Positions 59,397 to 64,000 of a DNA stretch of 64,000 nucleotides are shown here, piece after piece. A program made the position numbers and the translations under genes. Source of the DNA: a virus. The stretch's first letter is position 1, and each line of letters begins with the position of its first letter. The notes below the pieces were generated by a model. The model did no database searches, was not told the origin of the DNA, and worked only from the letters and a program-made list of their open reading frames with translations. The stretch lies in the IMG/VR virus record IMGVR_UViG_3300042321_002027, one strand, 5' to 3'.

Positions 59397-60581
59397 ATGG
59401 TAGCGACAACTAATGTTTCTTTTGCTGCTATTTCTTTGGAGTTAGATGGAACTCCAGGAACAGCATTTAGTATGAGTAATGCTTTTATGAGGTCTACTCT
59501 TAGCACTGGACCTTCGACTCCAGGTACAGCCATTAGCATAACTGATGTTGCTGGTGCATTTTATAAAACGTTTACCATTAGCACAAACACAGCCAATTAT
59601 AACATATATGACGCAATTGCTGCAGCTGGATGGACTGGTATTAAAAGAGCAACAGCAAACGTAACTCTTGTTTCTCCTTCACCAACTACTGCTGTCCAAA
59701 CTGTGTTATATTCAACATCAACTGCTAACGCTGCTTTAGAATCTGGATCGTTTCCTGGTTCCGCGCCTGCAAATGTCAGAATAGTTACTGGTGTAAACAC
59801 ATTTATTGTAGGAATGGGTGGTGCAGGTGGTGCAGGTGGGACTGCTTCTGCTCCTACTCCACCATCAGGAACAAATTACGCTACTGATCCTGGTGATCCT
59901 GGATCGCCCGGAGGCCATGCAATACGACTAACTTCTGCAGCAACATATACTATCGTAAACTCCGGTACTATTGGCGGTGGTGGTGGTGGTGGAGGTGGAG
60001 GTGGAGATTGGGATTCTTCGTCAGCACTACCGGACCCTTCTCCTTGTTTAGCTGCTGATAGCCAAATATTAATGTATGATGGCACCACAAAAAATATTTG
60101 TGATATAGTTTCTGGAGATAAATTAAAAACGCTTACAGGCGAAATAGGTACTGTGCTTTATTTAAATCCAACTACGTTAAAACGACACAGAAAAATTGTT
60201 CGTTTAAAAATTAATGAAAATGCAAAACCATTAAGAATTACTGACGATCATGAGTTGTGGATTAAAGACGAAACAGGCGAACGTTTTGGTGTTTACAATT
60301 ATAATAGCTGGTTACAAGACGAAATTACTACACCATCGTATAAATCTGGCGACCCGATATACGATATGAAAATTTTATCTCCTTTAGGTGTTCATAATTT
60401 TGCTACTGTAGATGGATGGTCAGAAACTAGCTGCGAATGGGAAATAAACTCTGATCCAGAAGAACCTGTTTATTGCATTATGTTAGACAAAGGAGTAGGT
60501 TTTATAGCGGATGGGTTTGTTGTCGCTAATGATGACTGGTATGATGAAGAATTGATCGGAGTTTCTTGGAAAGGCGTATGA
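59397..60581 (+). CDS. gp38-type glycine-rich adhesin, N-terminal part, fused to a C-terminal Hint domain
   Basis: IVGMGGAGGAGG...GGHAI...IVNSGTIGGGGGGGGGGG, then a Hint domain: CLAADSQILMYDG..KNI.DI..GD, ITDDH, PVY.I...FIADGFVVAN. Confidence 0.75.
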   Translation: MVATTNVSFAAISLELDGTPGTAFSMSNAFMRSTLSTGPSTPGTAISITDVAGAFYKTFTISTNTANYNIYDAIAAAGWTGIKRATANVTLVSPSPTTAVQTVLYSTSTANAALESGSFPGSAPANVRIVTGVNTFIVGMGGAGGAGGTASAPTPPSGTNYATDPGDPGSPGGHAIRLTSAATYTIVNSGTIGGGGGGGGGGGDWDSSSALPDPSPCLAADSQILMYDGTTKNICDIVSGDKLKTLTGEIGTVLYLNPTTLKRHRKIVRLKINENAKPLRITDDHELWIKDETGERFGVYNYNSWLQDEITTPSYKSGDPIYDMKILSPLGVHNFATVDGWSETSCEWEINSDPEEPVYCIMLDKGVGFIADGFVVANDDWYDEELIGVSWKGV

Positions 60582-61228
60582 ATTGTATTTTCGCTATGGG
60601 GTTGTACAGATCGGGAACTAATTTTTTACAACAGCTTCTTGACAAAAACTTTAAGTATAACTCTACAGTAATTGAAAAATATACTATAGAAGGTAAATTA
60701 TACAAGCATTGTTTACACGATAGTTGGTATAACAAGATGCCAAACGATGTTGTTCCGGTAATCATATATAAAGATCCATTTAAATGGATTGATAGTTTAT
60801 ACCGAAAGTCTTATGATTTAGAATTGTTTTATGACGTACATTATGAAACAGGGCATACAGAGATATATTTACCGTTTGAAGACCCTGATAATGAAGGGTA
60901 TGTTGCAGAAGTTCGTTGCAGCGTAGAAAAACTTTGTAGACTGTACAATAGGTATTTTACATATTGGTCGAATAAAAATGTTGAAATGATTTCACATAAA
61001 AAAATAATTTGTGAAACTGAAAATTGTTTATCTTATTTTCAAAATAAATATTCCTTACAAAGGATAAATGAAAATTTTACCATGTTGAAAGTTGATGAAG
61101 TAGATGGATCAAGACCTTTTACTCAACAGGTAAAATTGTACTATGATACTAATGAAATTGAAAATTTAAACGATGTTCAAATTAAAACAATAAAATCAAC
61201 TATTGATGTAATATTAAAGGAGTTTTAA
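60578..61228 (+). CDS. Sulfotransferase-like P-loop protein
   Basis: MGLYRSGTNFLQQLL (PSB-loop-like) and IYKDPFKWIDS; ATGA overlap with the upstream gene. Confidence 0.6.
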   Translation: MNCIFAMGLYRSGTNFLQQLLDKNFKYNSTVIEKYTIEGKLYKHCLHDSWYNKMPNDVVPVIIYKDPFKWIDSLYRKSYDLELFYDVHYETGHTEIYLPFEDPDNEGYVAEVRCSVEKLCRLYNRYFTYWSNKNVEMISHKKIICETENCLSYFQNKYSLQRINENFTMLKVDEVDGSRPFTQQVKLYYDTNEIENLNDVQIKTIKSTIDVILKEF

Positions 61229-61229
61229 A

Positions 61230-61544
61230 ATGGCCGGAGGAGGCGGAGGTGGAGGCAGAGGAGGATTAACCAATTCTGCAGGAGGACCTGGGGCGTCTCC
61301 AGCAGCAGGTGCTGGAACATTTGCAGGCGCTGGCACTGGATCACCGCAGCCTGGAGTTCCAGGTAATGGTGGAAATGGAGGAAATTGGGGTGCAAATGGA
61401 AGCAGCGGAACCGCAACCAGTCCTCCAGGACCAGCACCAGCTGCTACAGGTCCTGGAGGATCTGGTGGAACTTCTGGTAATGCAATTTCAAATTCCGCAG
61501 GTATAACTTTTACATATTCTGGGGCAGGTAGTAGGTTCGCATAA
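61230..61544 (+). CDS. gp38-type glycine-rich adhesin, C-terminal part
   Basis: MAGGGGGGGRGG...GNGGNGGNWGANG...GGSGGTSGNAI...TF...G.RF; AAGGAG SD. Confidence 0.7.
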   Translation: MAGGGGGGGRGGLTNSAGGPGASPAAGAGTFAGAGTGSPQPGVPGNGGNGGNWGANGSSGTATSPPGPAPAATGPGGSGGTSGNAISNSAGITFTYSGAGSRFA

Positions 61545-62549
61545 ATGTTTGACAGAGAATGGGCGTTTAAAAATGGTGATGATATTTCACCAAGAAAGTT
61601 ACCATATTTTTATACAGATCCTGTAACTAATACAGTTATAGAAATGACAAATTGTAACTATGATACTAAAAAAAACCTTGGTTGGTATCAAATTGAATTT
61701 AAAAATAATTACGAAAATAGACCTAACACTCATTGGGAAAGCGTTGGAACATTATACTATAACAAATTAAATGACTCTGTAGAATGCCATTCTTTTGTCT
61801 TGAAAGATGGTTGGAGAAATATATTATATCAAGAAATTGAAACATTAATACTAAGTTATCTAGGCGAGCCAACAGAAAAAATTACGAATTTACTATCAAA
61901 AATAAATTTGTATTTTATGAATGAGAAATATGACAATTACCAGCTAGTAGAATATTATAAGATATTTAAAAATTCTGCTTATGACATAGCCATATTCGTT
62001 GATAATGTTAACGAATATGAAATAGATGGTATTACTGCTTTTGAATTATTGTTTTATGCAGAACCTAATTTTAGACAACAACCTATATTGATGAATTACA
62101 TTAAGCAAAATTTAAACGATTTTGCTGGTAAAAACATAATTTCTTTAGGTTTAACTTCTAGTTTAACAGCTGCATATTTTAATAAAAATAATTTTAGTAG
62201 TAAAGCTCTAGATAACATTTTCTACCATTCAACGAAATTTAAAAAGTTTCATGTCAATTTAAATTGCGTTTTAACAGCAATAAACAACGATTTGTATTTT
62301 GATGTGCTAACAAAGGATAATTTTGACGATATTGACGGGGATGTTTTCATATTCGCTAATCCATTTTACGATACAGAATCTGCAGCCATCAATTTACAGT
62401 ACATGCAAACATTAAAACAAAAAGGCAAAAGAACTATTATTCTTTCGCCTTCATTGTGGAACGGAAATAATGAATTTATTACGTTTCCTAAAGAAAATTT
62501 ACAAGAGCTTTATACAGAAAATGGAATTACTTTATTTACTCTCAAGTAA
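61545..62549 (+). CDS. Hypothetical protein with a possible C-terminal SAM-methyltransferase-like fold
   Basis: FAGKNIISLG...DVFIFANPFYD weakly resembles class I MTase motifs. Confidence 0.45.
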   Translation: MFDREWAFKNGDDISPRKLPYFYTDPVTNTVIEMTNCNYDTKKNLGWYQIEFKNNYENRPNTHWESVGTLYYNKLNDSVECHSFVLKDGWRNILYQEIETLILSYLGEPTEKITNLLSKINLYFMNEKYDNYQLVEYYKIFKNSAYDIAIFVDNVNEYEIDGITAFELLFYAEPNFRQQPILMNYIKQNLNDFAGKNIISLGLTSSLTAAYFNKNNFSSKALDNIFYHSTKFKKFHVNLNCVLTAINNDLYFDVLTKDNFDDIDGDVFIFANPFYDTESAAINLQYMQTLKQKGKRTIILSPSLWNGNNEFITFPKENLQELYTENGITLFTLK

Positions 62550-63747
62550 AATGTGGTCCGTGAATCCAACCAACTAAAGATTTTCTGACACCTTTTGTAA
62601 CAGGGGTTACTTCGTGTTCTGTATAGGCGGGAAAAAACGCAATTAATCCTTTTTTCTTAGGCATGGCTTCTGCACCTCTACTAGACCAAATTAATAGATC
62701 TCCGCCTTCATATTCGCTAGGATCAGAGAGAAGCAAGCTGAAAGAAAGCTTTCTTGTTTTGTGTATCACTCCGTCCGTATGTTTGGTGTATTTGCCAGGA
62801 GTTTTATCATCAGCATGATATTCAATATATGTCAAGTGTTCTATTTTATCTAAATTAAATTTGTAGTTTTCTAAATTTTGTTTTGCGACTTCTTTTTCAA
62901 TTAACTTATATAACCATTCGAAATTTTTAGGATCGATACCAGCAACATATGCGTTTCTTATGTCTTTGTTTATTGATTCCCCTTTGCCGCCGTAACCTAT
63001 GGTAGCTTGTTCTAGTTCATTTTTACCACCTTCGACAATTAAATCAATTAAACCGCTAGACAAAAATTTTTCTTCGTAAACCCAAAGATGTTTTTCTTCT
63101 TGTTTATTACCAAAATACCAAAATCTATCGTCATATTCTTTTCTTGGTTTTTGAGCTTGTAAAATTGGTTCTTGTTTTGTTGTTTTTAAAGATTTTCTTC
63201 CATCATACTCTAAATCTTTATACTTACCATTAGCATCAACATAATGTAAGAAAACCTGGCACTGCCAATTTCCTTCCTTGTATGGTTGTCTCCAATGATT
63301 GATTTCCATACCTCTATAGATAAGAGCATCACCCAATTCGACTCTATATTCTCTAGGATTATCCTTTGAATCAGTAGATTCTGACAGCCATATTGGCCAT
63401 AAGTTACCATCGAATCCTAGCGTAATCGTTGCGCTAATTTCGCATTCTCTTCTGTCGGTGTGAGGTTTTAATTTTTCTCCAGGCTTATAAAAACGAGCGT
63501 AAGAGTAAGTAGGATTTAACTTCAACCCTGTTGATTCTTCCATTGCTGGCTTTAAATCTTCTAACAAAGTGTCAAACACCGAATCCCCATAAATAGAGGG
63601 CGATAAAGGACACTGATGGTCTCCTTCTTTTAAATCTTTTGATATTTTGATAAGATGTTCAGATAACATTGAACAAGTTTTATCATCAAGAATTTTGGTG
63701 ATATGGACATACTTGTTGTTTTTGAAGTATTCTTGTGGCGTGCTCAT
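62542..63747 (-). CDS. Tandem two-domain 2OG-Fe(II) oxygenase
   Basis: Domain 1: PTYSYAR.Y...LKPHTDR...H.R...QVFLHY. Domain 2: KHTD...RKLSFS..L....YEGG...FP...HEVTPVTKG.RKSLVGW. Confidence 0.88.
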   Translation of the reverse strand: MSTPQEYFKNNKYVHITKILDDKTCSMLSEHLIKISKDLKEGDHQCPLSPSIYGDSVFDTLLEDLKPAMEESTGLKLNPTYSYARFYKPGEKLKPHTDRRECEISATITLGFDGNLWPIWLSESTDSKDNPREYRVELGDALIYRGMEINHWRQPYKEGNWQCQVFLHYVDANGKYKDLEYDGRKSLKTTKQEPILQAQKPRKEYDDRFWYFGNKQEEKHLWVYEEKFLSSGLIDLIVEGGKNELEQATIGYGGKGESINKDIRNAYVAGIDPKNFEWLYKLIEKEVAKQNLENYKFNLDKIEHLTYIEYHADDKTPGKYTKHTDGVIHKTRKLSFSLLLSDPSEYEGGDLLIWSSRGAEAMPKKKGLIAFFPAYTEHEVTPVTKGVRKSLVGWIHGPHFT

Positions 63748-63806: not shown

Positions 63807-64000
63807 ATGTCAGAACTACGAGTTTCAACTTTGAATGTTACAGGTAATTTATCTGCTAACACTATTTATGATCCTGATTATGCAAAGAGCATAAACTCTA
63901 CTAGCGTAGGTATAGATCCTGGTTCTTATATTGGGTTTACTAGTAACGTTGCTTCTATTAAGTCTGGTTCGATTACTTTAAAAACACCAGTTGCATTTTC
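63807..64000 (+). CDS. Fibre-subunit-like protein (partial; MSELRVSTLNVT...)
   Basis: AAAGG SD; MS-x-L-x-V N-terminus shared with other fibre subunits; open to the window end. Confidence 0.6.
   Translation, partial: MSELRVSTLNVTGNLSANTIYDPDYAKSINSTSVGIDPGSYIGFTSNVASIKSGSITLKTPVAF

Follow-up and report, generated by a model that had tools for sequence, protein, structure and literature searches.

A gp38-like phage adhesin encoded in two parts around a C-terminal Hint domain and a gene of predicted sulfotransferase fold

Adhesins of the gp38 type are the textbook single-chain host-range determinants of the T-even phages and a favoured scaffold for phage retargeting, and the structure of a single-chain gp38, that of S16, has been solved. 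The enterobacterial gp38 proteins have a polyglycine-II sandwich whose core is built of the glycine-rich motifs; receptor binding falls to the intervening loops, and the motifs are considered hotspots of recombination (PMC12032242). The locus described here lies in the fibre region of an uncultured, distant T4-like myovirus (IMG/VR virus record IMGVR_UViG_3300042321_002027), of which a stretch of 64,000 nucleotides, referred to below as the window, was analysed. The gp6-like baseplate protein of this phage shares just 35% identity with its counterparts in Caulobacter phage Cr30 and Sinorhizobium phage phiM12. Four tightly packed genes on the plus strand make up the locus: a fibre-tip gene with an S74 domain; an open reading frame (ORF1), starting 3 nt past the end of the fibre-tip gene, that codes for the N-terminal half (N-half) of a gp38-like adhesin followed by a Hint domain; an enzyme gene; and ORF3, which codes for the C-terminal half (C-half). 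The adhesin is like T2 and S16 gp38 in being a small protein rich in glycine tracts, encoded directly after the distal fibre gene, in which glycine motifs alternate with variable loops (PMC12032242). Unlike the known examples, which are single chains, it is shared between two ORFs, one of its loops being occupied by a Hint domain and an enzyme gene, and an S74 domain closes the fibre protein upstream.

The nearest genomic precedent is provided by the fractured genes described in 2009, mainly from phage metagenomes, in which an intein is split over half-genes, a homing endonuclease gene is inserted, and the targets are enzymes of DNA metabolism (PMC2677866). As in those cases, a gene is found in two pieces with a Hint-family element at the break and an extra gene between the halves (PMC2677866). 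However, the whole Hint domain here belongs to the N-half, the C-half carries no piece of an intein, the inserted gene is predicted to encode a sulfotransferase fold, and the protein affected binds a receptor.

Among Hint domains themselves, the BIL domains are closest in function; they occur in variable proteins and cleave rather than splice (PMC7765530), and the BIL2 domain of the Tetrahymena protein BUBL is reported to couple its N-terminal flank, independently of ATP, to amines on other proteins (PMC8616854). The window domain shares with BIL and BIL2 the Hint fold, the first-position cysteine (Cys1), the block B histidine, a place in variable, non-essential proteins, the lack of a nucleophile in the C-terminal flank and the expectation of cleavage or transfer (PMC7765530, PMC8616854). 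It differs from them in a sequence identity of 14–15%, in belonging to a family that is always found at the extreme C-terminus, in a tail of its own with a conserved tryptophan, and in having a sulfotransferase-fold partner gene. The S74 chaperone offers a looser parallel, as it likewise sits at the C-terminal end of a fibre protein and is expected to detach itself once it has acted; it is, though, a serine–lysine protease of unrelated fold, and at this locus it is carried by the neighbouring gene. In the papers found on Hint domains together with fibres, sulfotransferases or cyanophages, no Hint domain on a phage receptor-binding protein, no Hint–sulfotransferase pair and no split gp38 is described, and the papers on phages phiCbK and CBB mention Hint for terminase inteins only. 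The locus is a new combination of known kinds (Hint autoprocessing, gene fracture and gp38 adhesins) with a real chance of new chemistry, and it appears to encode a host-range protein that is assembled or modified after translation in a manner not described before.

Profile comparisons identify ORF1 and ORF3, well above chance, as the N- and C-halves of one gp38-like adhesin. The Pfam family GP38 (PF05268) matches ORF1 residues 100–204 with 31.5 bits against a gathering score of 25, and all 49 homologues bear a precomputed PF05268 annotation. When aligned by hhalign with a profile of 18 intact gp38-like proteins, the N-half occupies columns 4–181 (probability 99.7%, E 1e-26) and the C-half columns 194–303 (96.9%, E 2e-10), the latter aligning over its full length with the C-terminal parts of the intact proteins. 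The two halves, which tile intact homologues of 300–320 aa, leave just a variable loop uncovered, and the break is therefore placed in this loop, between two glycine tracts. The N-half ends in the tract IVNSGTIG(G)11, which is followed by the Ser/Pro-rich linker DWDSSSALPDPSP, and the protein encoded by ORF3 begins with MAGGGGGGGRGG. Intact PF05268 proteins, of which about 37 are found in the database, have 245–326 residues (mostly about 300) and are laid out as ...NNGTIGGGGGGGGGG, a variable loop of about 10–25 residues, GGGGGGGR... and a C-terminal end ...GNSNITWxATGTRLG. They also directly follow S74 fibre genes, without a Hint domain or an enzyme gene. The single monomeric chain with all of the glycine-rich motifs, which is the hallmark of gp38, is here divided by a stop codon, a gene for a protein of 216 amino acids (aa) and a new start.

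A first-pass annotation of this DNA had already placed the break at a variable loop between glycine tracts, as the tiling of the intact homologues now confirms, and all of its statements about the sequence hold (ORF1 after an S74 fibre gene, a cysteine at 60045, the motif ITDDH, an ending VVAN-D with a 16-residue tail and a stop, and ORF3 with a Shine–Dalgarno sequence). Its comparison of the adhesin with T2/S16 gp38 stands as far as the Pfam match goes, but a profile search of PDB sequences with the intact gp38-like proteins did not find S16 gp38, the matches being glycine-linker artefacts. Because the link to T2/S16 gp38 is made by the Pfam family and that search gave no gp38 match, the kinship is judged on sequence to be distant.

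The halves are also predicted to fit together. A model of the N-half with the C-half (alignments of 25 and 23 rows, respectively) scores 0.79 (runs of 0.80, 0.79 and 0.77), against 0.34 for the best of three controls, and passes a mark attained by 58 of 80 solved complexes and by 2 of 110 mismatched pairs. At least 98% of the contacts are common to the runs, and the partner has a predicted local distance difference test score (pLDDT) of at least 82. Approximately 369 predicted contacts link almost the entire C-half to residues 138–207 of the N-half, and the modelled packing runs through the glycine tracts. The model thus supports the packing of the two halves against each other.

The split recurs in relatives. 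Twelve protein clusters of 380–400 aa, 53–94% identical to ORF1, cover it from end to end, and the order S74 gene, N-half–Hint gene, 216-aa gene, C-half gene, gene of about 334 aa and opposite-strand 2-oxoglutarate (2OG) oxygenase gene is found again in one IMG/VR locus (L001) and two Logan loci (L005 and L019). A further locus (L018) has the same order from the N-half–Hint gene on, a shorter ENA contig (L008) has it up to the C-half, and the JGI/ENA contig with protein P0010 shows a matching order of gene sizes. The more distant protein P0064 (48% identity in the Hint domain) is broken at the identical point. Ratios of non-synonymous to synonymous substitution (dN/dS), compared among the window, L001 and L019, are 0.09–0.17 for the N-half, 0.07–0.19 for the Hint domain and 0.14–0.19 for the sulfotransferase-fold gene. 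Those of the C-half are higher (0.22–0.47), as expected for a receptor-binding part, yet still below 1. GGAG or GAGG stands at the same place before the C-half ATG in L001, L005, L018 and L019. By these comparisons the split arrangement is old and every part of it is under purifying selection. It represents neither a pseudogene nor a misassembly, because separately assembled sequences with identities as low as 53% show it again and it is under purifying selection; the one-off disruption that the first-pass annotation had named as a danger to its reading is refuted by the same order in relatives. Misassembly is ruled out by the repetition of the order in independent IMG/VR, ENA and Logan assemblies, and a group I intron or untranslated insert by the conservation of the Hint domain and the enzyme as proteins (dN/dS 0.07–0.19).

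Variation within this clade is found at the ends of its parts. The N-termini of the C-half proteins, between the methionine and the glycine tract, read A, PAN, PNN or TVE. The Ser/Pro linker before Cys1 (window 60006–60044) differs by insertions and deletions between relatives that are 93% identical, DWDSSSALPDPSP being replaced by DWDSATAPSPSPPSPP in L001 (6001–7191), and the Hint domain ends in VVAN, VVGN or VVSN. A word-based homologue search with the C-half gave a single match, P0213, because of its low complexity. Among GenBank phages, megablast with the 4.3-kb region gave no match, tblastn with ORF1 gave nothing but a 26% match to the Hint domain in Providencia phage PSTNGR1, and tblastn with the sulfotransferase-like protein gave no match. 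Scans of IMG/VR recovered few loci, and the Hint–enzyme module is so far known from metagenomes only.

The Hint domain belongs to a larger family. A HMMER search with ORF1 residues 212–394 found 157 proteins, and in the best of these the Hint domain and its tail lie at the extreme C-terminus behind differing N-terminal parts, namely fibre-like proteins of 629–646 aa, a 335-aa protein and 226-aa proteins made up of a short peptide, polyproline and Hint. In an alignment of 49 members, every one of the 43 sequences that extend to Cys1 has this residue, block B has Ser or Thr in 47 of 49 and His in 48 of 49, and 45 of 46 retain the tail tryptophan. At the site of the asparagine in VVAN most members have Ser, Ala or Gly; Asn occurs in 4 of 49, all from the gp38 clade. 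Immediately before Cys1, 34 of 43 members carry Ser, Thr or Cys, and Pro is confined to the gp38 clade. In the window protein the Cys217 codon (Cys1) is at 60045–60047, the TDDH of block B (within ITDDH) forms residues 282–285, and the domain ends in GFVVAN, followed by Asp, the 16-residue tail and the stop.

The AlphaFold2 (AF2) model of the domain has a pLDDT of 94.8, with 93–96 in the tail blocks. Its best Foldseek match is the BIL2 domain of Tetrahymena BUBL1 (6y75; E 9e-9, TM 0.64/0.77), followed by the DnaB mini-intein (E 1e-6), the Clostridium BIL domain 2lwy (E 2e-5) and hedgehog (E 2e-4 to 3e-4; 1at0 3e-4). A profile of the family against PDB sequences similarly gave matches to inteins, hedgehog (E 1e-3) and a BIL domain; its top matches, to ‘Tako8’, were discarded as a repeat artefact. 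The window domain does not reach a curated Pfam threshold (Vint, Hom_end_hint and Hint give 14–17 bits against cut-offs of 27–32), and 14 of 17 family members match Hom_end_hint at E values up to 0.1 (best 1.5e-9). The hedgehog Hint is comparable in that a C-terminal domain would form a thioester at the C-terminus of its cargo, carries an extra segment after the core, and would release the cargo with or without an adduct. It differs in being a much weaker match by both of these methods and in having a sterol-recognition region where the window protein has its 16-residue tail, and the context here is that of a phage.

On sequence and model together, the domain is a new family in the Hint superfamily, of the C-terminal autoprocessing kind represented by BIL and hedgehog domains rather than an intein. 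Canonical splicing is excluded because Asp occupies the +1 position, no C-extein follows in frame, the penultimate His is missing, and the domain is followed by the 16-residue tail and a stop. The residues for an N–S acyl shift and an N-terminal thioester are conserved, from which self-cleavage or transfer at Cys217 is predicted. The inability to splice canonically and the presence of the thioester-forming residues had been put forward by the first-pass annotation and are borne out. Its picture of a degenerate intein peculiar to gp38 is not, as the family as a whole has a C-terminal Hint with a folded, conserved tail, and the asparagine of the intein-like ending is found in the four sequences mentioned above. 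A canonical intein was considered and rejected, since Cys1 and TxxH are present but the C-terminal His-Asn and the Cys, Ser or Thr at +1 are missing. A split intein is ruled out, as the entire Hint domain including its last strands lies in ORF1, ORF3 opens with adhesin sequence, and the middle gene is of sulfotransferase fold.

Cys-rich, CxxC-like motifs shortly before Cys1 are found in many members of the Hint family. In L013 and L014 (3–2690) two internal Hint-like segments (E about 1e-14) lie in the final part of a 2182-aa protein encoded upstream of a polyproline–Hint gene; they may be true inteins or additional BIL domains. A β-hydroxy residue at the thioester with a sulfotransferase alongside is reminiscent of the CurM sulfotransferase–thioesterase pair, which works by sulfation followed by elimination, though this is pure speculation.

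The AF2 model of the 216-aa protein (pLDDT 89.9) has a sulfotransferase fold, and its enzymatic activity is predicted from this. VIA-align places it closest to SULT1C3 (Z 11.7, 174 residues, root mean squared deviation 3.2), tyrosylprotein sulfotransferase 2 (TPST2; 11.4) and the sulfotransferase domain of CurM (10.7), and the top 50 structural matches are all sulfotransferases (50/50); Foldseek gives weak matches (best E 3e-3). Across 13 homologues down to 25% identity, G-L-Y-R-S-G-T, K65/P67/W70/S73, Y42-K43-H44 and S178-R179 are invariant or nearly so; G-L-x-R-S-G is invariant and aligns with the start of Sulfotransfer_3. Residues K65, P67, W70 and S73 are read from the sequence as a candidate 3'-phosphate site.

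The enzyme gene accompanies the Hint domain well beyond the adhesin. Its ATG at 60578 overlaps the TGA of ORF1 (ATGA), which points to translational coupling of the two. Sulfotransferase-like homologues directly follow Hint-ended genes of 226–234, 629 and 789 aa, lie one gene further after the 335-aa Hint gene, and in the 654-aa lineage are encoded on the opposite strand at a distance of about 2.5 kb. A metagenome scan with the Hint domain alone as seed, in an alignment of eight sequences, yielded 18 loci: the enzyme gene overlaps the end of the Hint gene in 12, lies nearby in 1 and is lacking in 3, and in 2 the contig is too short. Among the Hint loci surveyed, the C-half gene is present in the gp38 clade only. 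Because the Hint–enzyme pair recurs behind at least five other cargo types, without a C-half gene, the enzyme gene is by these sequence comparisons a functionally linked partner of the Hint domain and not an accidental passenger; the first-pass annotation had suspected such a link.

Further genes and motifs go with this pair. A 2OG-Fe(II) oxygenase gene is near every Hint/sulfotransferase locus for which a gene table was examined (L005, L010, L011, L013 and L017–L019), often together with DUF6065, and methyltransferase-like genes are also common. The family annotated as 2OG-FeII_Oxy_3, accompanied or not by DUF6065, occurs in L005, L010, L011, L013, L017 and L019. The one feature common to all cargos is a Ser/Thr/Pro-rich stretch just before Cys1; many cargos have a polyproline run there, and the gp38 clade has SSSALPDPSP or APSPSPPSPP. 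The presence of the oxygenase at loci with proline-rich linkers suggests that it may hydroxylate the linker. Sulfation of the tyrosine in the acidic tail DDWYDEE was considered and rejected, as the Tyr is replaced by Phe in relatives. An abundant form of the Hint protein in aquatic metagenomes has 226–234 aa, in which a short hydrophobic peptide (such as MPDIILVGGLLT) and 25–28 prolines precede the Hint domain (L026–L037, for example L030 4881–5582; L013 5001–5681). The start of this short gene overlaps the stop of a fibre-like gene of 415–505 aa and the sulfotransferase-like gene comes next; the product may be a separate protein or may be joined to the fibre by a frameshift.

The reading preferred here, to which an even chance is given, is of a two-piece gp38-like adhesin with a Hint/sulfotransferase module in its variable loop, in which autoprocessing is followed by assembly of the two chains. 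Cys217, aided by Thr282 and His285, would turn the Pro216–Cys217 bond into a thioester, and the Hint domain would detach from the N-half after translation. The C-half, translated from its own ribosome-binding site, would pack on the glycine tracts of the N-half to give a glycine-rich sandwich at the S74 fibre tip. Resolution of the thioester by water, giving a two-chain adhesin, is rated the single most likely outcome because the Hint–enzyme pair works where a second half does not exist. More speculatively, the sulfotransferase-like enzyme, and perhaps the methyltransferase-like and 2OG-oxygenase proteins as well, would modify the linker before Cys1, as suggested by its being the sole feature shared by all cargos, and the Hint domain would act as a removable handle while this takes place.

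Several points weigh against this reading. Sulfotransfer_3 gives 17.2 bits against a cut-off of 27, and its match covers the N-terminal 25 residues (the phosphosulfate-binding loop) only. The sulfotransferase-like family is not exclusive to Hint loci, because a distant homologue (25% identity; L023 4944–5570) sits beside a gene for a NAD-dependent sugar epimerase-like protein with no Hint domain nearby. The gp38 clade may use the domain differently from the rest of the family, from which it is set apart by both the Pro before Cys1 and the Asn at the intein C-terminal position. A passing complex score is to be expected for the halves of one fold and may mirror likeness to the solved single-chain gp38, so that a non-covalent state is not implied by it. 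Cleavage, the presence of the C-half in virions and sulfotransferase activity are predictions from sequence and models, and the role of the Hint domain as a handle is drawn from synteny.

A different fate of the same thioester would be attack by the α-amine of the docked C-half, restoring a single-chain adhesin with a loop of 9–14 residues. Both chain ends derive from one loop, so docking would bring them close, and the rebuilt loops are comparable with those of about 10–25 residues in intact homologues. The α-amine is the only amine of the window C-half, as this half contains no lysine, and the Asn at the intein C-terminal position is unique to the gp38 clade. Such trans-ligation also keeps a precedent, since the closest solved fold is that of the Tetrahymena BIL2 domain, reported to conjugate amines (PMC8616854). 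It is somewhat weakened, however, by the unconserved N-terminus of the C-half, which would offer the secondary amine of a proline in two lineages, and by the operation of the module elsewhere without a C-half, the pair being kept in at least five cargo lineages that lack such an acceptor gene; moreover, in general chemistry, aminolysis of a thioester by an N-terminus other than Cys is slow if uncatalysed. On the same grounds the sortase-like ligation to an oligoglycine acceptor put forward by the first-pass annotation loses ground, and trans-ligation as a whole is considered unlikely, though it has a genuine share of the probability. A transfer like that of hedgehog or BUBL, in which a small-molecule nucleophile or a lysine of another virion protein would resolve the thioester and leave the C-terminus of the N-half with an adduct or a covalent cross-link, and the enzyme would make, modify or present the acceptor, is doubtful to a slightly greater degree. 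The pairing of Hint and sulfotransferase irrespective of cargo, with overlapping gene starts, is in keeping with it, as are the invariably C-terminal position of the Hint domain with its conserved extra tail, resembling hedgehog-type proteins, the BIL2 precedent for conjugation and the clustering of further modifying enzymes close by. Yet no acceptor is identifiable, a sterol-recognition region would be far longer than the 16-residue tail, sulfotransferases are not known as suppliers of thioester nucleophiles, and synteny cannot tell such a transfer from linker modification with plain hydrolysis.

A broader form of these two proposals would have a portable Hint–sulfotransferase system couple the thioester of a fibre protein to a defined acceptor, the N-terminus of the C-half in the gp38 clade and a virion protein or small molecule elsewhere, with the sulfotransferase modifying either the Ser/Thr/Pro linker or the acceptor; this too is improbable at present, to the same extent as trans-ligation. 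Least credible by far is a selfish or decaying insertion, in which the cassette broke the adhesin gene and left the C-half or the whole adhesin non-functional, host recognition being taken over by another fibre protein. The cassette does have a lower G+C content than its glycine-rich flanks, the glycine-rich motifs of gp38 are described as recombination hotspots (PMC12032242), and several other fibre genes lie within the window. Against this, the split is kept down to 53% identity (48% in the P0064 Hint domain) with intact frames and a ribosome-binding site for each C-half, the dN/dS of the C-half is below 1 (0.22–0.47), and the halves are predicted to fit together.

A natural gp38 of two chains with a thioester-forming domain right at the break, as in the preferred two-piece reading, would show that the glycine sandwich tolerates a split in a loop, and that phages apply Hint chemistry to their receptor-binding proteins. 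The recurrent combination of a C-terminal Hint domain with a sulfotransferase-fold gene constitutes a new gene module behind many fibre-like proteins in aquatic phage metagenomes, and it may help to explain why methyltransferase-like and 2OG-oxygenase genes cluster among tail-fibre genes. If ligation or tagging does occur, the module would be a natural ATP-independent system of protein conjugation beyond inteins, hedgehog and the BUBL proteins. A portable coupling system would provide the first natural protein ligation or lipid-like tagging on a viral receptor-binding protein, and, were the C-half the acceptor, a host-range determinant would be stitched together post-translationally. The coordinates of the locus and its neighbours are collected in Table 1.

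Table 1. Features of the split adhesin locus and adjoining genes (window coordinates)
Feature	Coordinates	Strand	Basis or remark
S74 fibre-tip gene, 182 aa	58845..59393	+	PF13884, E 1e-14; upstream partner of the adhesin gene
ORF1, 394 aa: gp38-like N-half and C-terminal Hint	59397-60581	+	reading frame
gp38-like N-half, ORF1 residues 1-216	59397..60044	+	Pfam GP38, hhalign, dN/dS
Hint core, Cys217 to Asn378	60045..60530	+	profile matches, AF2, Foldseek, family-wide Cys1 and His
Hint tail, 16 aa (DDWYDEELIGVSWKGV), and stop codon	60531..60581	+	conserved Trp, tail pLDDT
Sulfotransferase-fold gene (predicted), 216 aa	60578..61228	+	AF2 model, structural matches, synteny
Shine–Dalgarno AAGGAG of ORF3, spacing to the ATG 7 nt	61217..61222	+	read from the sequence
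ORF3, gp38-like C-half, 104 aa	61230..61544	+	remaining Gly-rich motifs and conserved C-terminus; hhalign, dN/dS, complex model
334-aa gene, same cassette (context, outside the split itself)	61545..62549	+	position conserved in L001, L005, L017-L019
Two-domain 2OG-Fe(II) oxygenase (prolyl-hydroxylase-type family PF13640)	62542..63747	-	PF13640, E 1e-15

The product of the 334-aa gene has no Pfam match. It is possibly a class I S-adenosylmethionine (SAM) methyltransferase, an atlas feature score of 0.85 to methyltransferase clusters being a lead only. The protein contains an NPFY-like motif and a G-rich loop, and has a homologue in the L013 cassette (E 2.6e-6). Beyond the oxygenase, the next gene on the plus strand (63807–64000, running off the end of the window) is fibre-like with many GGGG tracts, and its counterpart in L001 (10406–12274) has 622 aa; it may encode a second receptor-binding protein of the glycine-sandwich type.

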